A DNA stretch of 64,000 bases from the IMG/VR virus record IMGVR_UViG_3300029267_003207; one strand, written 5' to 3'. Of the stretch, positions 1 to 57,884 are shown piece by piece. Below the pieces are notes generated by a model, which was not told the DNA's origin, did not search any database, and worked only from the letters and a program-made list of their open reading frames with translations. Origin of the DNA: a virus. Lineage: Duplodnaviria > Heunggongvirae > Uroviricota > Caudoviricetes. Position 1 is the stretch's first letter; each line of letters begins with the position of its first letter. Position numbers and translations under genes: made by a program.

Positions 1-507
1 CTTGAAACACGTGACGCCATTGTCGGAAGTTGAAAGTCGTGAAGATTCTAGTTGCTGTGCAATTAGGTAACACTTGACGAGCATCTTCAGGCTTCCAGCC
101 AGCATCAAGAAGTTCATTATAGCTATTGTTTGCATTTATAAGAGCCTTAATAAACTTATTTGAACTTGTTTCATTGTACTCACCCGGGTTAATACCGGGC
201 GGCGCAATAAACTGGATACTCTTTTTACCGTAGTTCACATATCGCTGAGACTCTTGGCTGTAGGCTCCTAGTCGGTGCCGAACCAACTGATGGCTACAAG
301 ACCGGTCACAAGTAATCAAAACACTAGCCACACAATGCTCAAGGACACTTTCGTGTCCTTTAGAGATTAGCGTCTTGAGAAATTTTTCTGTGCTACCTAT
401 TGGTTCACTGCGATAACAAGTTCTAGCGGCCCTCTCAATTATACTTTCACACTGGGTGGGCCACTGAACTATCTCTATAAAGGGGTCTATTAGGTGTACG
501 TCCATAT
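1..507 (-). CDS. thyX: Flavin-dependent thymidylate synthase ThyX (N-terminal part; gene runs off the window start)
   Basis: Hand translation of the minus strand from ATG at 507 gives MDVHLIDPF...SHQLVRHRLGAYSQESQRYVNY, which matches the ThyX signature RHRxxxxxS...RY. The ORF is open to position 1. Confidence 0.7.
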
Positions 508-2459: not shown

Positions 2460-3415
2460 TAGAATTTCAACGCTTTAAATAACTCATTATTGTCCATTAA
2501 AGTGGCAGCTTTGTTCAAATTTTCAAGCTCTTGATCATTTTCTTCTTTCGACATGTCCATGAATATATGGCCGTTTTGGATGTTATTCCAAGCAGTCTGT
2601 AGTCGATGGAGAAGTGTGTTCTGATACAACTTCGAAAGCTGGCCTCTATGTTGGGCGACTCTGACAAGAGGACGCGGAGAACTTGGCTTACAAGCAAGCT
2701 GATCAACTGCGACAATGACATCTGTTCCAACTGGTTCCTTTAGTACCCACGCGTATATACATAACTGGTCGGCCCACTGCTTTCCGCCTTCTTCAAACGG
2801 CGTGGCACCAATCTCGTAATCACCGATCAATTTTGGGCTGTAATTCTTGTGGGCTTTTCCATTGTTTCGAGAAGGCTTGGCCGTTTCCTCGTTCCATGTA
2901 TCCCATACCTTCTTGTAGTTTTTGGCGGGGCTTGTTGTGTACTTAGAAAAGTAGCCATTCACCTTCCAGTCTAACAAAACTCGCTTTCCATCATGCCTTG
3001 TGTATAAGCAGTCTGGTTTTCCTAAGAGATTGACTCCTTCAACTTCCCGTTTAACCAAAAACTCAAAACGCGCTGACTCTCCTTTAAGAATATCCTCTAA
3101 AAGTTCATCATACGCGCCTACTTTTTTGTAGCCATCAAATAAGTACTGTCCGATCTCTTTTACTTCATCCCTGTTATGCTTTTCAACTTGGGACTCAAAC
3201 AAAGTGTCAAACTCGAACTGGTCATCAACTTTCCCAAAAATAGCTTTATATAACTCATGTTTAACAAAGGCATCAAAGGAAGAACCAACCGCCATTGCTG
3301 GTGTTTGTGGTTCCCTAGGAAGACGAGTATCTGCCAAGTAATTATAGAAGAAGGCATGAGGGTCAGTCTCATACGTATTCAAACTAGTAGGAGACAGGTA
3401 TTTAATTGTTCTCAT
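2459..3415 (-). CDS. PD-(D/E)XK family nuclease (Cas4/RecB-like fold without a Cys cluster)
   Basis: N-terminal SPTSLNTYETDP motif and a core GKPDCLYTRHDGKRVLLDWKV (D...D/ExK). Confidence 0.55.
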   Translation of the reverse strand: MRTIKYLSPTSLNTYETDPHAFFYNYLADTRLPREPQTPAMAVGSSFDAFVKHELYKAIFGKVDDQFEFDTLFESQVEKHNRDEVKEIGQYLFDGYKKVGAYDELLEDILKGESARFEFLVKREVEGVNLLGKPDCLYTRHDGKRVLLDWKVNGYFSKYTTSPAKNYKKVWDTWNEETAKPSRNNGKAHKNYSPKLIGDYEIGATPFEEGGKQWADQLCIYAWVLKEPVGTDVIVAVDQLACKPSSPRPLVRVAQHRGQLSKLYQNTLLHRLQTAWNNIQNGHIFMDMSKEENDQELENLNKAATLMDNNELFKALKF

Positions 3416-3617
3416 GCTTTACCATCATCTTCCTAACTGTATTGGTTTCTGGGTTACGAAGAAACACTTCAGTGAAACCAGCGTCTTGTTGCTTAGTAAA
3501 ATAATATAGCAGTTGAAAAGCCCTTTGGGCAACACTTCCAAGAGATTCATTTGGTTCTTTAATCTCTTGTATGGCTTTCATTGCGTCTTTTTTTAATAGT
3601 ACAGGGTATTCGTCCAA
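3402..3617 (-). CDS. hypothetical small protein (start uncertain)
   Basis: 71-aa ORF. The predicted TTG start lies inside the TnpB right-end sequence, so a downstream ATG (MKAIQEIKE) is more plausible. Confidence 0.3.
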   Translation of the reverse strand: MDEYPVLLKKDAMKAIQEIKEPNESLGSVAQRAFQLLYYFTKQQDAGFTEVFLRNPETNTVRKMMVKHENN

Positions 3618-3760
3618 GTCTCTAACTCCTTATGTTAGTTCTCGTTTCACTGTCGGCCACTGGCAAGTTGCCTGTAACTTTACCAACTCCACGAGCGTTA
3701 ATTTCCGCCAACTCAGCGGTATGTTTTAGATTGATAGCTGCGTTAAGGTCACGATCAATT
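3560..3760 (-). ncRNA. candidate omega-RNA (reRNA) region: tnpB 3' end plus right-end flank
   Basis: Inferred from known TnpB biology, where the guide RNA derives from the tnpB 3' end and right end. The last ~110 nt of tnpB plus ~10 nt downstream are conserved in a second copy at 26262..26375. The exact RNA ends are not determinable from sequence. Confidence 0.3.
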
Positions 3761-4767
3761 TGCAACCCACAACTACATTTATAAACTCTATCTGATAGCT
3801 TCATATTTTTCAAGCTACCACAATTTGAACATAACTTAGTTGAAGGAAAATAGCGATCTACTATCTGAACTTCAACGCCCGCCCAAGCTGATTTATATTC
3901 TACTTGCCTGCGAAATTCTCGCATGTTTGCATCAAGAATGTGGCTTGAAAACTTTTTCATCGAGCTAACTGCTAAGTCTTCTAAAACTACTACTGAAGGT
4001 TGCTTGGTTCTCACAATCTCACTAGTAGCTTTATGGGTTGCATCACTTCGAATGTTGCTAATTTTCAACCACAAACGAGCAAGTTTCACCTTGAGCTTGT
4101 TATATCTGTTGCTTCCTTTTACTCTTCGACTTAGCTTTCTCTGAATATGCTTTAGTTTCTTTTGAAATCGAAATAAGGCTTTTGGATTAGCAAAGACTGT
4201 TCCGTCAGAACAGGCTGCTAAATTTCTAACTCCTAAGTCTATTCCTATAACTCCATTTTTCTCTTCATTAAGCTGAGTTTCTTCTTCAACTTGAAGAGAA
4301 ACAAACCACTTTCCAGCACGCTCACTGATGGTTGCGCTTGTTGAAGTGGTATGTCTACCTAATGGTAAGTAGTTCCTTTCTTTGAGCCTAACCCAACCAA
4401 TTTTAGGGAGCTTTATTTTTCCGGCTTCAACAGTAAAGTAGCCCTGAAGAGTAAATGAAATCTTTCCATGTTTCGACTTGAACTTAGGGTGCTTACTCAT
4501 CTTCTTGAAAAATCTTGAATAAGCCTGTGAAAGATGGCGCAAGCTATAAACTAAAGCCGTGTTACTGACTCCATATAAGAAGTCATTTTCTTGCTTATGT
4601 TCAGTAAGTCTCTTATTCAACCAGAAAGCATTTGGTTTGAACTCTCTTTTTGAAATCTTCTCCAGAGCCCAATTCCATATAAAACGAGTGCAGCCAGCAT
4701 GTTGCTTGAAAGAAGCAATTTGCTTTCTATTCGGCTTTAGCTGTGTTTTATATGACTTATGAGACAT
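3622..4767 (-). CDS. tnpB: TnpB (IS200/IS605 OrfB-family RuvC-like RNA-guided endonuclease)
   Basis: RuvC-I GIDLGVRNLAACSDG, RuvC-II VVVLEDL, zinc ribbon CSNCGS..KCSCG, RuvC-III DRDLNAAINL. 381 aa. No Y1 transposase nearby. Confidence 0.85.
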   Translation of the reverse strand: MSHKSYKTQLKPNRKQIASFKQHAGCTRFIWNWALEKISKREFKPNAFWLNKRLTEHKQENDFLYGVSNTALVYSLRHLSQAYSRFFKKMSKHPKFKSKHGKISFTLQGYFTVEAGKIKLPKIGWVRLKERNYLPLGRHTTSTSATISERAGKWFVSLQVEEETQLNEEKNGVIGIDLGVRNLAACSDGTVFANPKALFRFQKKLKHIQRKLSRRVKGSNRYNKLKVKLARLWLKISNIRSDATHKATSEIVRTKQPSVVVLEDLAVSSMKKFSSHILDANMREFRRQVEYKSAWAGVEVQIVDRYFPSTKLCSNCGSLKNMKLSDRVYKCSCGLQIDRDLNAAINLKHTAELAEINARGVGKVTGNLPVADSETRTNIRS

Positions 4768-4782
4768 ACCTTCAAATTTCTA

Positions 4783-5028
4783 CTAGTCCACCTTTAATTC
4801 TAGTTTTGCTTTCTCTATTTTAGTTCTTAGTTTCTGACATTTGTTACTGAGCCGATTAACATGCTCTTTTAGTTCATATATACATTGAAGTTCATAGTTT
4901 TCATGCTCTTGCCAATCATCGGCATAGCAATCCCATGAGCAGTATCCTTCACTCAACGGGTGGAGATCATAGTCATACCCACAATTAGAACAATAATGAA
5001 AATCAGTTCCACATTTTCTACATGCCAT
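4783..5028 (-). CDS. zinc-ribbon protein
   Basis: CRKCGT..CSNCG plus CSWDC, then a coiled-coil C-terminus. Ends 15 nt upstream of the tnpB start. Confidence 0.4.
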
Positions 5029-23118: not shown

Positions 23119-25001
23119 AGAACATCCTCAAACTCCCCTAATGCCATCAGTTCCAGCTTTCTATTATCCTTTAGAACTTCAAGAACTTTTTCATCAGTAG
23201 GCAAATGGATAAGATCAACAATTTGGCAACCTTTATTGTTATCCATTCCAATTCGATGGCATCTATCCTCTGCTTGAAGCCTATTCTCTGGGCTAAAATC
23301 TGAGTCCCAAAAACATACAGTTCTTGATTCAGTAAGATTCAAGCCCATTCCACCAGAAGCAGGATGTGCCACGAATGCAACTTTTTCAGTATCACCGTGC
23401 CAGTAGTCAAGAACATCAGTAGTAAGTTGCTGCGTACTAGCGGCATCATATACATTCCACCCTCTTCCGTCAACTTGACACACGCTCCATGATTGTGACA
23501 AGCAAATTTTACGAATTCTGTCAATGCTGCCAGTGAAGCAAGCAAAAATTACAATTCGCCCCTGCTCTTCATTCTCCTCAAGAACTGTTTTAAGAGCCTC
23601 TTCTTTAGGTGTGGGTATTTCTTTTGCATACCTAACTTTATTTGGAACTTCTCCGGTTCCCCTACAAGTCGGACAGTCTCTTTCTACTTTTTCAAACCTT
23701 GCAAGCTGTTCTTCAGACAAAAGCTCTCCACTCTCATAAATTCGTTCAGGGCTTTCTGAATCCTGCCAAATTTCAGTTCTTCCTGTTCCTTCACAAACTG
23801 GGCACTTCTTAGTTCCATCAGTTTTTTCCATATAGCAGAAACCACTGGACAATTCACGGAGTCTAGTAAGCCCTTCGATTGTGGACTTCGAAGCCTTTAG
23901 TAGAGCTTTGGCAACTCTTACAGTCTTAGCATCGGGCTCACAACGAATCATTCTGTATACCTTATCAGGAAGATCGAGACAATCTTTTTTTAGTTTAACA
24001 TTGACAAGACCCCTGAGTCGATCAGATAGCTTGGCGACCTCGTTCACACTCTTCTTGTACTTGTGGCCTTCATGCTCTTCATCTGGCAACTTACCACAAA
24101 TAGCGCACTTATTTTCATTATCAAGCCAAGTGCTACGCGAATAGAATTTACCCTGTGGTGTTTCTTTTAATTCAAAGATACCAAGTCGCTGTTCAAAAGC
24201 CTTATAACTTCCTTCTCTCAGAAAGCCCGGAAAAGTTACTTCTGCTTGGCTCCACCACTCGCAAGGACTCTTAGGAGCAACAGTACCAGACATTAGAACA
24301 ATGTAACCATCTTGCCCATGTTCCTCCCTAATAGCGTCAGCAAGAGCCTGAGCGGCCTTAGTGCGTTGTGCATTAGGAGACTTAACGCGAGATGATTCAT
24401 CGAACACGACGCCTTGTGGAGCCGGATCACCTGGAGTCCAAGTCTTCATACGCTTAACAAGACCTTGGTAAGTGAGCATCTCGACATTCAGACTTGGATC
24501 AATTTCCCACTTAATAAATTCACGCTCTACTGCATTCAAACCAGAACGCGGACCAACCCAGAACCAATTCTTGGCGTCAGAAAGCTCCATTGCAGAAATG
24601 GCAGACAAGCTCTTGCCGACCCCCATCGAAGCGGCCAAAATAACCGTTCGATAGGTAAGAATATGGTCAGCTAAATCCTTCTGATGCTCATACAACGAAC
24701 GAGGATACTCATGCCTAATCAGCGGACGGTCAAACCACTCAAAGATATTTTCGCCCATCAGGTAGCGTAATTGAATAGTATTGCGTCGGCAATTATCAAC
24801 TCGCCAACATTTCTTCGGAGGGTCATCGAATCCAAGCCATTTTGCACCTTTTAGACATTTAATTTCATCCTTTAGTGCAAAAGGACTACTAATAAATTCA
24901 ATGTGATTCTCAGTGACCTTTAGCTTCACAGGCATCTTAACAAGCTTGCCGCGCTTATTAGGAACCTTTAGGGTGAGATTAGCATACTTAGGATACATCA
25001 A
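23115..25001 (-). CDS. SNF2-family (DEAD/DEAH-like) helicase with inserted zinc ribbon
   Basis: Walker A AASMGVGKSLSA, motif II VFDESSRVKS, zinc ribbon CPVCEGTGR..CPTCRGTG, motif VI QAEDRCHRIGM. Confidence 0.75.
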   Translation of the reverse strand: MMYPKYANLTLKVPNKRGKLVKMPVKLKVTENHIEFISSPFALKDEIKCLKGAKWLGFDDPPKKCWRVDNCRRNTIQLRYLMGENIFEWFDRPLIRHEYPRSLYEHQKDLADHILTYRTVILAASMGVGKSLSAISAMELSDAKNWFWVGPRSGLNAVEREFIKWEIDPSLNVEMLTYQGLVKRMKTWTPGDPAPQGVVFDESSRVKSPNAQRTKAAQALADAIREEHGQDGYIVLMSGTVAPKSPCEWWSQAEVTFPGFLREGSYKAFEQRLGIFELKETPQGKFYSRSTWLDNENKCAICGKLPDEEHEGHKYKKSVNEVAKLSDRLRGLVNVKLKKDCLDLPDKVYRMIRCEPDAKTVRVAKALLKASKSTIEGLTRLRELSSGFCYMEKTDGTKKCPVCEGTGRTEIWQDSESPERIYESGELLSEEQLARFEKVERDCPTCRGTGEVPNKVRYAKEIPTPKEEALKTVLEENEEQGRIVIFACFTGSIDRIRKICLSQSWSVCQVDGRGWNVYDAASTQQLTTDVLDYWHGDTEKVAFVAHPASGGMGLNLTESRTVCFWDSDFSPENRLQAEDRCHRIGMDNNKGCQIVDLIHLPTDEKVLEVLKDNRKLELMALGEFEDVL

Positions 25002-25671: not shown

Positions 25672-25942
25672 AATTTACTCCTAGTAATTTTGCCAGCTTT
25701 TCAGCTTTTTGTTCTATATCACGTTGCTCTTCTTCTGAGCGTAATGGTGCTTTATTAATAGTTATTTTAGAATCGCCATCTTTAATGGACCATTGAAATG
25801 CCACACCTTCATAAACAGGTTCTGGGAACTTAGATAAGGCTATAGCAGCAAATTCAATAGGTTGAGATGGATCGTCGAGATCATATAGCATACAATCCGC
25901 ATATTTAGTCTTGACACTATTAACAACTCCTTCGAATCTCAA
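25664..25942 (-). CDS. hypothetical protein
   Basis: 92-aa ORF. Confidence 0.35.
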   Translation of the reverse strand: MRFEGVVNSVKTKYADCMLYDLDDPSQPIEFAAIALSKFPEPVYEGVAFQWSIKDGDSKITINKAPLRSEEEQRDIEQKAEKLAKLLGVNYG

Positions 25943-26268
25943 TTAAATTTCCTCCAATCCCGGATAAACTGTTTAACCTTTCGGAACTTCCTGTTGTATT
26001 TCTCCTCAAAGATAAAATCAAAAGGCTCAATCTCGTCATCCATTAGATAATAACCGTTATCCAAAGCTTTGCCAAGAAGATTCATTGCTTGGAGAAAGGT
26101 CACTTTTTTATCATTTAGCAAGTTGTCAAGTTGCGTTGTTTCTTTACGAGTAAGTTCCAGTTCTTCGACTACATCATCACGTAATTCTGCAATTGCTTCT
26201 TCATGGTCTCGGGAATCAACAATGTCCTTGAACATGTTTCTAGTAATTTCAACAGCTTTATCTTCCAA
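25939..26268 (-). CDS. hypothetical protein (start uncertain)
   Basis: The predicted TTG start lies inside the TnpB-right-end-like repeat; an internal ATG start is more likely. Confidence 0.3.
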   Translation of the reverse strand: MEDKAVEITRNMFKDIVDSRDHEEAIAELRDDVVEELELTRKETTQLDNLLNDKKVTFLQAMNLLGKALDNGYYLMDDEIEPFDFIFEEKYNRKFRKVKQFIRDWRKFN

Positions 26269-26375
26269 GTCTCTAACTCCTTAATGTTAGTTCTCGTTTC
26301 AACGTCGGCCACCAGCAATATTGCTTGTAACCTTACCAACTCCACGAGCGTTAATTTCCGCTGACTCAGCGGTAT
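26262..26375 (-). mobile_element. Diverged second copy of the tnpB 3' end plus right end (solo RE / omega-RNA scaffold-like remnant)
   Basis: A ~114-nt direct repeat of 3612..3730 at about 85-90% identity with one indel. Similarity starts at the same boundary (tccaagtctctaactcc) and runs ~100 nt into tnpB-coding-like sequence, with no intact ORF. Confidence 0.6.
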
Positions 26376-26401
26376 GAAATTGCTTGGTTGTCACAATTTA
26401 G

Positions 26402-26476
26402 TCTGTGTGAGAGGATTCGAACCTCCGACCTCAGCGCCCCAAACGCCGCGCTCTAGCCAAGCTGAGCTACACACAG
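26402..26476 (-). tRNA. tRNA-Pro (anticodon UGG)
   Basis: The reverse complement folds: acceptor CTGTGTG/CACACAG, D-arm GCTC..GAGC, anticodon stem CGGCG/CGCTG with loop TTTGGGG, T-arm GGAGG-TTCGAAT-CCTCT. Confidence 0.65.
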
Positions 26477-26578
26477 AAAATGGCGGGTATGGGTGTTGAT
26501 CCCATCATCCAGAGCTTATGAAACTCCGGTGAGCACCGGCTCACCCGCGATATGAGACCCATTACCGGGTCTCTTTGT

Positions 26579-28170: not shown

Positions 28171-28382
28171 TACTAAAAACAGGTAGGAAAAAAAATTTTT
28201 TTAACTAACCAAAATTGGGGGCACGTTAAAAATACGCCGCAAACTCTCTATATAGAGTTTCTTCACTTTTCTTTTTATTTACTTTTCTCACATATGTAAC
28301 TTTTCTATTTTTTCAACAAACCCCCTATAATAAGTAATAACTACTAAAGAGGGGTTTGAAAAAGATTAAAGAGGGGTACTCC

Positions 28383-28422
28383 AATTGACGTAAGATCTTA
28401 CCACACAAGAACTTACGTCAAT
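28383..28422. promoter_or_regulatory. Palindromic operator-like site in the divergent intergenic region
   Basis: aattgacgtaag - 16 nt - cttacgtcaatt is a perfect 12-bp inverted repeat, and the inner gtaagatcttac is itself palindromic. Nearby direct repeats aaagaggggt x2 at 28348..28378. Confidence 0.4.
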
Positions 28423-28661
28423 TTATCTTTCTCTCTTTTTTTACCTCACACCTCCACTAGAAGGGGAAAGTCATTTTTTTTGTTTTCTCTTTTTCATTCA
28501 ACTAGTACCTCATAGGTGGGGCACTTATTCGCGCACCCCTCAAAGGAGTTAAAAAACAAAACCGGCCTTTTTTGGGCATTTTTCGTCATTTTTCGGGGGG
28601 TTTGTTGAGCTTCAAATGACATGTTTTTTGCTCTTTTCCATCCCGTTTTGTCTTTTTACTC

Positions 28662-34921: not shown

Positions 34922-37900
34922 TAGTATTGATAGGGACTTGTTGGGATTACTAAATCTGTTAAACCCACACCAACGGAAAAAGATGTTCTTGGGTCTTTGA
35001 ACACTTTACTATTTATATCAACTGGCATCTCGACAATTGCATATTGAATTGGGTGACTTGATGACACATATACATTACTCACTGCTCCTTCACCAAGCTC
35101 ACTAGTGACCTCGCCCATAAAAGCTGACGAGTTGTTATCTTTCGTAAGAAGCCTGCTTCCAGACACATCATAATAGTGATCACTTGTTCCAGGAGGGGGG
35201 CTTGAATGAACAACCCATTGATCAACTGGGTCATGTGGGTTCCAGACATAATATAATTGATTCTCATAATCAACCGCTTCTCTGTAATTTGGGCCAGGAG
35301 TCATGCTGTACTTCCATTCTGACTCTGGGTCTTGTGGGTTCTTAATATAGTAAGTAGTTTCTGTGGCCTGCAACTCAGATATCATTGGATCAGTTCTTGG
35401 AGAGCCGTAGTAATCGTAGTACTCTTTAACATTCCACATAGCCCCCATCCAAATTAAGCTTGTATCTCTGTAGATTATGTCTCCATTATACATATAAACA
35501 ATCGCACCATCAGGCATTACTTGAGTAGAATACTTGTTCTGTGTGAAAATTTCAACAGCTTTATGGTAGCCATATTTTGCCACTAGTGCATCTTGAAACG
35601 CTGTTGTGGCATATGCATCTTGAACATTATCATAAAGTTCTTTGAATGTTTCAGGGAAAAGTTTTAGCTTAACTTTTACTTCACCTGTTGTCTTATTTAC
35701 CTTAACGTCAAATGTTGTGGTGCCACCAAAACTCATTTGACCCGTGCTTGTCAAGTAGTCTCTTACTTCTTTTCCATCTCCAGAGCACATTCCAGGAAGA
35801 GCCGTTCTATGGTTGGAGAAATTTTTAAACCCGCTCATAATAGTTTGGGTCACGCTTCTTGAGCCACTTTGAACTCCCTTACAGTAATAGTCGCAGCTTA
35901 TTTCTTGGCCGGTTTCATCACAGTTATATTTTTGCCCACTTAAACTTGTACAAGTATCAGTTGTTTTCCACATCATGTGTGGTAAGTCACAACAACTTTG
36001 TGTACTCTCGCTTGGAGTTGGCTGAACATCTAGAATAGCTTGCTGCCCCTTACATTTAGCGGCTAGTGCCCCAGAGTTATAATGATTACTAAGCCATTGA
36101 CTCATATTTGTTTGACAGTCTGAAAACATTTCAACTTCACAAATTAAGTCATCAGAATATATACAGCACATTGGCCCACACAGACAGTTTTGTTTCTCAC
36201 AAGGACCTTTTTGAAAACAGTATGGATAATCACAGGTAACTTTAAACACATAGTGCCAGAACCAGCAATCACCAGATTGTTCAAGTTCTTGTTCCCTATC
36301 TTCAATATCGTCTTCTGGGCGCCTATATTGAGCTTGTTGGTCATCTACATATGGCACATATGGGCGGCCGAATACATTATTACCGCTGTCAACTAGCTCC
36401 TCATCATTCGTGTCGCCACCCCCGTCGTTATAACCTCCATGCGGTATATCAAATGGATTGTCCTCATAGTCGTAACCATCTGGATCAGTTTCATCGCCCT
36501 CCCAATATCCTTCTCCTCCTATCCAACAATCTACGTCGTCAAAGTCATAAAAGAAAAATTTCCACTCTTGTATGCTATCTCCTCGATCTGATGGATATCT
36601 ATCCCAATCATAATCCCGATCATAATCCCGAGCATAATTCCCACTTATAAAAAATGGGTGTGTCGAAGGAGGAACTAATAAAGGTGTGTAATTTAAATCA
36701 AAGATTTTATTTTCAGACTTATTTGCTGGCCATGCCCAGTAGTATTCTTCATTTTCACCAAACCGTATTGGAGTCCATAAAGTTAGTGTGATACCATCAA
36801 CTTCTACACTTATGTTTGTTACAACACAGATAACATCTAACGGTTCAAAATACACTCCGTCATATATATTAAGCTTTAGGAGCGAAAGAGGTCCCTTGAA
36901 AGTGACAAATTTCCACGCGTTAGAGTCCCGTATAAACCAAAAAGTTGCACTCTTTTGTACATTGTTCTTTAAATTTAAGCAACTGTATTTGCTTTCATGC
37001 GGGATAAGACCATACTCGTCAACATTCTGCTCTATAAAGAATTTATTCTCTTTTGGGTCTGTATCTTTTCTTGGCGCATACGTATTTTTCCATGTAACTA
37101 TTTCTTTTGTACTCACTACATCGCTGGTAGTTATGTTATAGCCTTGATATATCTTAGAACTATCAATTGTAAGACAAGAGGAGGGCTTTTCAGAGAGATA
37201 ATGAATGTAAAAAGTGTTATCCCATATATTTAATGCGCACCTAGATTGATAAGCTATGTCTTTTATTAACTGGAATGCTGAGATTTTTTCTTGAAGCGTG
37301 AAACCAATTGGGTATTTTTCCAGCTTACTTTTTACATATGCAAAACTTTCTTCATCTATATTCAGGTCTGTGTACAGATTTATAATCCATTCTATAACAT
37401 CAACAGGATTCGGTCCGACATCAGATTCAAAGTCAACACAGACTTCATCTCCTAAACATTCACTTATTTGTTCCAAAGGCTTGTTAAAATGTATTTCAAC
37501 ACCTGTAAAATCACCATAATCAACTTCCCTTATCTCATAATTACTGTCTGGTATTTCTACCAATTTTCCAGGGTGTGAGCAAGTTGATTTTTTATACCCA
37601 AGAACACGGAAAACAACTCCTGGCACCAGACTCGCCAGAAAGATAGGTCCAGCACCAGCTAGTGAAAAAGAACTACCAGCCGGCGCAGTAAACCGACCTG
37701 CTATTTTCATATTGTAATATTCAGTTACAGTTCTATCAGCAGCTAGAATTTGCGTAATTAAATTATGGTGATTCACCGATTCTACTAACTGGTAGTAGAC
37801 TCCAAGCGCCTCCAAGTCATCTGTTACTTTAGGAAGTACATAATTATAGTTTGGTTTTCCGGTATCTAAATTAAGAAGATATGAATTTTTTGTCTCTGTC

Positions 37901-57001: not shown

Positions 57002-57532
57002 TTATGTCACACGACTCATTTTAAACAAGTGGCTATCCCGTAAGAAAGGCCTCAAGAGTCGCCATGCCTTGGCACTAGGTACGCCATTGGCAATATGTTC
57101 CATGCTTACGTTATTTCTGTCGTAAGTTGTTCTGACGGAAGAGATTGTTTGTCCTATTACTGCTAAGTTCTCTGCTTCCATGTCAGGATCGATACCATCC
57201 AGAAGTGCGTAAGCTACTTCCCAGCAAGCTATCTTTATATCATCTGGAACGTTTGTGTCCGTCCCACGAGGAAATTCTAGCTCCTGAGAAAGATAAGCGG
57301 CCCGAATTTCTGCTTTGGTTGGTGCCGGGTCCACCAAGTCACCATCGCTATCATAAAGAATAGCATAGACTGCCGCTTTTTCCCCGGAAAAATTTAATCT
57401 ATCGATGATTTGGGTCGCACCAATTAGAGCTTGTTCGCGTTCAGTGGCATTGGCGCTTGTCCAAGTTGTTGAAAACAGCCTATTATCAAAATAGGTATTT
57501 GCTTCGTCTACTGTCCCATAATACGTGTACAA
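57002..57532 (-). CDS. hypothetical head-associated protein
   Basis: 176-aa ORF. Confidence 0.3.
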   Translation of the reverse strand: MYTYYGTVDEANTYFDNRLFSTTWTSANATEREQALIGATQIIDRLNFSGEKAAVYAILYDSDGDLVDPAPTKAEIRAAYLSQELEFPRGTDTNVPDDIKIACWEVAYALLDGIDPDMEAENLAVIGQTISSVRTTYDRNNVSMEHIANGVPSAKAWRLLRPFLRDSHLFKMSRVT

Positions 57533-57578
57533 GTCTCTAATTCCTAAATACTAGCTTTAGTTTGGCCACTAGTGGTAT

Positions 57579-57884
57579 TTACCACGCTACGAATGAGTAA
57601 TTAACTGTATTTGCTTCCGCTGCTACGTTAATTGTGTTTGGGGTGGAGATCGGAAGAAAAACCTTTTCTCCAGCACTAAGAGAATAGTTTCCTCCACCGC
57701 CCTGATTAGCGGTTGAATAAATAAACATAGCGTCGTTATTAGAGGCATCAGCTTTAATTGTGATACCCTCCACCAAAGTGATTCCGGTACTTGTGTTGAT
57801 CGTAACTCCGGTTAAACTATTGGTAGAGCCACTTCCCAACCATACTTTGTCGATAATAAGTCGTTTAGTTTCTGCTTGCCACAT
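57579..57884 (-). CDS. hypothetical protein
   Basis: 101-aa G/S/T/N-rich ORF. Confidence 0.3.
   Translation of the reverse strand: MWQAETKRLIIDKVWLGSGSTNSLTGVTINTSTGITLVEGITIKADASNNDAMFIYSTANQGGGGNYSLSAGEKVFLPISTPNTINVAAEANTVNYSFVAW

Follow-up and report, generated by a model that had tools for sequence, protein, structure and literature searches.

The window, by which we mean the whole 64,000-nt stretch of phage DNA that was analysed, contains an intact tnpB gene at 3622..4767 that encodes a 381-aa protein (Pfam OrfB_IS605, 2.6e-26; Cas12f1-like_TNB, 1.3e-21; HTH_OrfB_IS605, 2.2e-12) and is the sole TnpB found in it. The RuvC residues D177, E263 and D338 are invariant in an alignment of 18 proteins, as are the zinc-finger cysteines. 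Like all the genes and copies under study, tnpB lies on the minus strand. Its last ~100 nt are overlapped by an omega-RNA-like scaffold, copy A (3614..3723), whose right end reads ...GAGACTTGG and provides both the RBS, AAGGAG, and the TTG start of the next gene, of 71 aa (3402..3617, beginning TTGGACGAA). At a distance of 22 kb from this tnpB-linked copy, a protein-less scaffold with its own right end, copy B (26265..26376), is found 24 nt downstream, in the RNA sense, of a tRNA-Pro(UGG) gene (26401..26476; ARAGORN and Rfam), which is a native neighbour, and runs into the TTG start (26268..26266) of a 109-aa ORF. No tnpB was seen among the ORFs around copy B, in agreement with the original prediction that the second copy has no TnpB ORF; just an 18-nt tnpB relic lies between the tRNA gene and the scaffold.

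Local alignment and MAFFT both pair minus-strand positions 3723..3614 (A) with 26376..26265 (B), with 101 of 112 columns identical (90.2%). The repeat of the tnpB 3' end and right end that was originally described therefore stands, and the single indel attributed to it is replaced by two 1-nt insertions in copy B. An identical 19-mer, AAGGAGTTAGAGACTTGGA, ends both copies on the minus strand (3613..3631 in A, 26264..26282 in B). A search of the window allowing three mismatches returned one further site only, at 57528..57546, for a chance expectation of 0.02 sites.

Proteins 98, 87, 84 and 72% identical to this TnpB were retrieved from a large protein collection, on contigs L003-L007, where tnpB occupies at least four different gene neighbourhoods with precise boundaries. 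At 50% identity or more, this TnpB clade was found on phage-like metagenome contigs only, the best cellular relatives being ~36-46% identical. Near and distant searches of 50,697 GenBank phages gave no relative of the window, and the TnpB matches there are at most ~40% identical. We saw no tnpA beside any copy and could recognise no left-end hairpin even in the full-length elements, in which at most ~16 nt separate the flank from the start of tnpB. In three contexts the first letters of tnpB echo the right end (ATGG/TTGG, ATGA/TTGA and TTGA/TTGA). Separately, L003 shares with the window a 98%-identical tnpB and the same downstream genes, but its upstream flank (L003 1..90, compared with 4740..4860 of the window) is wholly different and its tnpB has a GTG start; the first ~500 nt of that gene are more diverged than the remainder. 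This flank switch and the diverged 5' portion indicate recombination breakpoints at and inside tnpB.

Two other features were noticed in the surroundings of copy B. Between a 230-aa gene and tRNA-Pro, the minus strand at 26477..26578 holds a conserved structured stretch whose first hairpin covaries with the L019 lineage and is followed by a tRNA-like segment that encodes CCA and may have a CAU anticodon loop. The idea of another, non-canonical tRNA(CAU) at this place was rejected, with no ARAGORN support and no Rfam match at E<=1. Further away, an imperfect inverted repeat of 32 nt (75% complementary, with a spacer of 7 nt) occupies 28368..28438, in the intergenic region from which a ParB-like operon on the minus strand and a DUF5906 primase-like gene on the plus strand diverge; a regulatory or origin function is possible.

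A conserved structured RNA and its detached copies

The repeated segment of ~111 nt folds into five helices with 28 pairs. Across six close sequences 99.4% of the cells are paired, and one stem position is G-C, U-A or A-U according to the lineage. The tnpB copies vary at wobble positions upstream of ATACCG, while from ATACCG on the nucleotides are conserved and such changes as occur there are paired. A covariance model built from this close set (R1) also recovers the element from more distant phage tnpB genes, again at their 3' end; R2 denotes the second covariance model. In an alignment of 23 distinct relatives, which is model-fitted and hence favours the structure, compensatory changes are present in 28 of 28 pairs and 94.2% of the cells are paired, compared with 36-47% in slid controls. 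In L108 and L109 the ORF stop falls inside hairpin 1, so the conservation there acts at the RNA level and does not come from coding. Rfam 15 gave no match to the scaffold at gathering score or at E<=1, which reflects that it holds no curated model of this RNA and is not counter-evidence. Exact and gapped scaffold patterns had no match in IMG/VR or in 185,579 species genomes, and one metagenome scan with the scaffold pattern returned L008 (the same contig as L005) and L009. Judged by its position, its structure and its family-wide conservation, the segment is the predicted omega-RNA scaffold of this TnpB clade. The original prediction had assigned the omega-RNA scaffold to the repeated region, which indeed coincides exactly with the conserved structured RNA of the clade.

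Copy B is complete. It extends over the full length of both covariance models and scores 135.9 bits with R1 and 93.7 bits with R2, compared with 130.3 and 91.7 bits for copy A. All 28 standard pairs are kept and none is broken, so that the disrupted scaffold which the original prediction had set against itself was not found. The four stem substitutions that separate B from A (U-G to U-A, G-U to G-C and a double G-C to A-U) all preserve pairing, both insertions sit in loops, and the other differences fall where the tnpB-linked copies vary too. Given 90% identity and differences that are either variable in the family or compensated, the TnpB encoded at 3622..4767 is likely to be compatible with scaffold B and is the presumed effector for its RNA. 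As far as can be read from sequence, copy B combines three features looked for in a stand-alone omega-RNA, namely no attached effector, an intact effector in the same genome and a complete scaffold.

Other detached scaffolds were found, in different states. The third site in the window corresponds to an internally deleted copy of scaffold and right end, relic C (57529..57601, minus strand; R1 21.4 bits, E 0.014 over the window), which lacks 41 central model positions and keeps its ends and the translation-start region AGGAATTAGAGACTTG. This region forms the RBS and TTG of a head-tail-connector-like ORF, and the relic also contains the end of the ORF before it. Relic C implies a third former tnpB insertion site in the phage and exemplifies the decayed state of a copy in this genome. 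On an unrelated IMG/VR phage contig, L105, a protein-less scaffold (3315..3417, minus strand) lies ~630 nt from tnpB on the opposite strand; it extends from hairpin 1 to the right end of that element and shows partly compensatory changes relative to the linked copy. Another detached protein-less match lies near tnpB on the IMG/VR contig L110 (1154..1239, plus strand). L105 and L110 suggest that solo omega-RNAs recur in phages.

Start-codon insertion and the deletion origin of copy B

Homology among the insertion contexts stops at ...GGAGTTAGAGAYTTG(G/A), which defines the right end, and the next gene always starts with the TTG of this motif. The shared boundary motif had been taken for a right end from the two copies; four other insertion contexts diverge at the same point and bear this out. 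The right end thus functions as a Shine-Dalgarno sequence and TTG start for the displaced gene, also in L004, L006 and L007, a role of the boundary motif that is absent from the original prediction. At both sites for which empty alleles were found, it has replaced the native ATG of the downstream gene. With the RBS and TTG that the right end brings, the downstream gene is not silenced by an insertion at its start codon.

At site A, the 81-aa gene and the 71-aa gene, the latter with a native ATG, adjoin in the empty alleles L183-L186 (...AACTAATGAACGAG...), where the window has tnpB between them. At site B, the homologues of the 109-aa protein fall into six clusters. Occupied alleles are carried by L010-L016, which are the same phage as the window and agree with it throughout the B locus (the only deviation is that of L015 in 24300..24499, ~1.8 kb from B), by L017, which is identical up to ~26200 and then mosaic, and by L009 and L018, a diverged lineage that still carries B. 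In the empty alleles, L019-L021 and L022, the tRNA-Pro gene is followed by 17 nt (TTAACCAGGAGAAAGAT or CTAACCGGGAGAAAGAC), by ATG or TTG, and then by GAAGAAAAAGCTGTTGAAATT. Specifically, L019-L021 read tRNA, TTAACCAGGAGAAAGAT and ATGGAAGAAAAAGC; the empty site of L019 is …GAAAGATATGGAAGAAAAAGCTGTTGAAATT and the allele of L022 is …GACTTGGAAG…. Within single samples (ERZ27256796, ERZ27256778 and ERZ27256770), site B is found both occupied and empty. In the occupied form the native RBS and ATG of the 109-aa gene (25939..26268) are replaced by the AAGGAG and TTG of the element, the N-terminal codons are conserved as protein, and on its 5' side the scaffold is preceded by the tnpB coding relic, then by 4 nt of the native spacer, then by the tRNA. 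The suggestion that tRNA-Pro had been the target of the mobile element does not hold, since the tRNA is present in occupied and empty alleles alike and the empty alleles place the junction at the ATG of the 109-aa gene, with the intact tRNA 17 nt upstream.

The L022 allele deserves a separate remark. In positions 1..160 of this contig (ENA ERZ27256796 k141_1013577), the sequence reads ...GGGAGAAAGACTTGGAAGAA, with a native TTG, where L019 reads ...GATATGGAAGAA, and its GACTTGG is identical to the right end of the element. This allele could be a footprint of element loss, a product of co-conversion, or an allele that escapes TAM recognition.

The origin of copy B is recorded in the 18-nt relic ATTGTGACAACCAAGCAA (26380..26397, minus strand), which is identical at 17 of 18 positions to 4017..4000 of tnpB. 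This internal tnpB segment, ATTGTGAGAACCAAGCAA (4000..4017, minus strand), codes for IVRTKQ just before RuvC-II. At up to two mismatches, the window contains no sites other than the relic and the segment, and the 18-mer is also found at the homologous tnpB position in L003, L004 and L006. An internal tnpB fragment of this kind beside copy B identifies it as the remains of a full-length tnpB after two deletions, one from the native spacer to about tnpB nt 745 and the other from about nt 765 to a point 3 nt short of hairpin 1. Site B has lost ~1,030 nt of the element and 0 of the 112 scaffold nt. An alternative derivation of the spacer 5' of B, as a degenerate RuvC-III remnant, was discarded: its alignment is not significant, with 170 of 2000 shuffles reaching the score, and the source is the IVRTKQ segment. 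Among related phages with 109-aa homologues, an intact tnpB at site B was found on no contig, and so nothing was found of the intact second tnpB in related phages that would point to simple decay. The tnpB fragment nonetheless bears out the alternative put forward at the outset, a deletion remnant of a second IS. Copy B is a deletion remnant and, at the same time, a guide scaffold that is complete, and each of the two alternatives originally offered is partly true.

Comparison of the window with L009 shows how little the B locus differs between diverged lineages. The three downstream genes have 15.8% of all their sites changed between the two, and 31 of 80 four-fold sites (39%), against one difference in 112 (111/112 identical), a change from A-U to G-U, in scaffold B and none in 76 in the tRNA. 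One difference or none in 112 positions would arise with a probability of 1e-7 at the overall rate and 1e-22 at the four-fold rate. The 24-nt spacer, which includes the presumably neutral coding relic, shows 1/24; since neutrality was expected there, the low divergence of B may stem from recent sharing or recombination of this block and not from selection acting on the scaffold. The last ~20 nt of B are constrained in any case by their use as the RBS and start codon of the 109-aa gene. These figures come from the one independent diverged lineage with B, whose contig L009 ends 20 nt upstream of the tRNA. Downstream, the first difference between the window and L009 is at position 12 of the candidate guide, which places the boundary of the identity block inside the guide-matching segment. 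Homing predicts such a boundary, which as a single observation cannot establish it, and L017 has an unrelated, ordinary mosaic breakpoint near B. Spread of the module as a unit would fit the occupied and empty alleles and the near-identical block in a diverged lineage, but copy B itself was formed by deletion in situ, and ordinary recombination may account for the block.

Candidate guides and the possible role of copy B

Immediately beyond the right end the flanks of the insertion contexts all differ, and at both copies the flank coincides with the first codons of the displaced gene. Candidate guide A, ACGAATACCCTGTACTATTA (3594..3613, minus strand; start uncertain by ~2 nt), is drawn from the 71-aa gene, and candidate guide B, AAGATAAAGCTGTTGAAATT (26245..26264, minus strand), from the 109-aa gene. 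Guide B matches the empty alleles L019 and L022 (AAGAAAAAGCTGTTGAAATT) at 19 of 20 positions; the one mismatch, at position 5, falls in the presumed seed. For guide A, neither the window nor IMG/VR gave any other match. Within the window, guide B is matched exactly over 17 nt at 35547..35566 (minus strand), in frame (KAVEI) within an ORF of 1337 aa. We rejected this site as a self-target of guide B, because the pattern AAGAWAAAGCTGTTGAAATT occurs in eight unrelated IMG/VR genes, all of them encoding E[DE]KAVEI, and the match is most likely a coincidence of codon usage. Of the comparison of both guides with phage and host genomes that had been proposed, the part run on the window and IMG/VR thus gave no meaningful second target.

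Left-end flanks and the two empty sites yielded no consistent TAM motif apart from the start codon. Next to the empty targets, on the 5' side, stand ATATG(G) in one and TAATG(A) in the other, against ACTTG(G) at the right end; these are compatible with a TAM that includes ATG, and they are not proof of one. On the minus strand between the 230-aa and 109-aa genes there is no sigma-70-like promoter or terminator. Two short complementarities were also noted. AAUUUCA, at the junction between spacer and scaffold B (26370..26385), is complementary to UGAAAUU, positions 14-20 of guide B (26245..26251, minus strand), and the CUUGG at the 3' terminus of the scaffold has its complement, CCAAG, in the tnpB relic. 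They could occlude the guide or arise by chance in AT-rich sequence.

We propose that copy B is a functional stand-alone omega-RNA module that can be used in trans by the one TnpB of the phage, and we give this reading a probability of about 0.5. The module began as a full-length tnpB element of the family represented by 3614..4767, inserted at the start codon of the 109-aa gene, which thereby came under the RBS and TTG of the element. Two deletions subsequently removed the tnpB ORF and left the 18-nt relic and, intact, the whole ~111-nt scaffold and the right end. The position of the scaffold between tRNA-Pro and the RBS, on the same strand and with no promoter- or terminator-like site, suggests that it is transcribed as the leader of the 109-aa mRNA, in which case the first ~20 nt of the gene would form a guide directed against uninserted alleles. 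TnpB produced from 3622..4767 could load this RNA in trans and cut the genomes of co-infecting related phages that carry the uninserted allele. Repair from an occupied genome might then copy the module, or the cut might simply disable the competitor, and the module would behave as a non-autonomous homing or exclusion element.

A role as a guide in trans is made plausible by the homology of the two copies, the structure, completeness and conservation of the scaffold, the intact TnpB, the presence of mixed alleles in the same samples, the solo scaffold of L105 and the stand-alone omega-RNAs reported elsewhere. We also count in its favour that the deletions ended 3 nt before hairpin 1, while relic C lost internal sequence. 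The mismatch of the empty alleles with guide B at position 5 counts against it, as do the little-changed spacer, the presence of B in just one independent diverged lineage and the constraint on its last ~20 nt. One can go further and imagine a single TnpB served by its own guide and by stand-alone scaffolds at former sites, an RNA-only gene drive that would recently have crossed diverged lineages through TnpB-triggered homing in co-infected cells, with the end of the identity block inside the guide-matching segment as its trace and L022 as a TAM-escape or footprint allele; this extension we hold to be rather unlikely. If true, it would represent a naturally occurring halfway stage from the transposon nuclease with one guide to a CRISPR-like system with several, serving virus-virus competition.

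The strongest competing explanation is that copy B is an inert young remnant, a dead tnpB insertion whose last ~20 nt persist as RBS and start codon while the rest has not yet decayed; the near-identity between lineages would then reflect recent recombination of the block from the tRNA to the right end. We regard this as a real, though tentative, possibility. It accords with the origin of B by deletion from a full-length tnpB, with a presumably neutral spacer that is conserved too (1/24), with the mosaic recombination nearby in L017, and with relic C, which shows that the end point of decay is a bare translation-start region. It does not account easily for a loss that spared every scaffold nucleotide and stopped just short of hairpin 1, for stem substitutions that all keep pairing in a copy that outscores the functional one, for an identity block between the window and L009 that ends within the guide segment, or for an independent phage, L105, with the same solo architecture from hairpin 1 to the right end.

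Alternatively, the scaffold could act in cis or as a decoy, as a leader that tunes translation or stability of the 109-aa mRNA, as an aid to 3' processing of tRNA-Pro, or by titrating or recruiting TnpB to regulate the gene. The same-strand arrangement between tRNA and RBS, with no promoter- or terminator-like site separating them, would suit such a role, as would the location of the Shine-Dalgarno sequence AAGGAG in the loop of hairpin 5, the last hairpin, and the same arrangement at site A, which couples omega-RNA maturation to expression of the 71-aa gene. Yet in the empty alleles the gene follows a plain 17-nt spacer, so the leader is not needed; no feature separates B from a guide-competent scaffold, and the L105 solo copy is left unexplained, which makes a cis or decoy role improbable in our judgement. 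Chance similarity, or a repeated phage regulatory motif with no relation to tnpB, is a negligible contender. A short related motif does occur at a third gene start (57528..57546), but that site is itself a deleted copy, and neither idea can be reconciled with a 112-nt match at 90% identity that reaches 136 bits (E 1e-26) against the covariance model, with the 17/18 tnpB coding relic adjoining copy B, or with the insertion and empty alleles among related phages.

Relation to known systems

The locus is unusually favourable natural material. Site B is available in occupied and empty form, a decayed form exists elsewhere in the genome, and the path from a full tnpB element to an RNA-only module can be traced. 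With an intact effector in the same phage and coexisting alleles, RNA-guided homing or exclusion of competitors between phages becomes directly testable. Should function in trans fail, the locus would be an ordinary transposon scar. The family as a whole appears adapted to densely packed phage genomes through a right end that brings an RBS and a TTG.

Among known units, copy A and its relatives resemble IS1341-type solo tnpB elements, being tnpB-only units in at least four gene contexts with the right-end flank as guide; they differ from these in being found on phage-like contigs only and in having a right end whose Shine-Dalgarno sequence and TTG replace the downstream ATG. For copy B, a parallel exists in the orphan CRISPR mini-arrays and solitary repeat units borne by phages, which likewise are guide modules that lack their effector and rely on one encoded elsewhere. 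Unlike these, copy B has no repeat-spacer architecture and no spacer acquisition, and its guide is fixed by the insertion site.

PATEs are protein-less IS200/IS605 derivatives that often encode omega-RNAs needing TnpB in trans (Meers et al. 2023, PMC10055086). Copy B shares with them a non-autonomous, protein-less nature, a right end with an omega-RNA and, by prediction, the need for TnpB in trans. However, PATEs keep left-end and right-end hairpins and are moved by TnpA, whereas copy B has no left end and retains only a tnpB coding relic; without a left end it falls outside the PATEs.

The tnpB element as a whole recalls the free-standing homing-endonuclease genes of T-even-type phages, for which decayed remnants are known and homing into co-infecting phages has been discussed (PMC13565253). 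Both are selfish nucleases between conserved phage genes that are polymorphic, are expected to spread by co-infection and decay by deletion. The difference is that specificity here would reside in the RNA, so that the module can outlive the nuclease gene at its locus and be served in trans, which a remnant of a protein homing endonuclease cannot.

The closest counterparts of copy B are the stand-alone omega-RNAs of the OMEGA systems, which have no effector, are reported to work in trans and have a biological role described as unknown (PMC10691335, summarising Altae-Tran et al. 2021). As in these, a scaffold without an adjacent effector or transposase is accompanied by a presumably compatible effector elsewhere in the genome, and the flank would serve as guide. 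Copy B differs in residing in a phage genome, in having arisen by a traceable in-situ deletion of tnpB with no evident mobilisation of a mini-transposon, and in lying at a gene start, to which it supplies the RBS and start codon; its activity in trans is a prediction. Stand-alone omega-RNAs have thus already been described and are known from bacteria, and copy B is a new, well-documented member from a phage.
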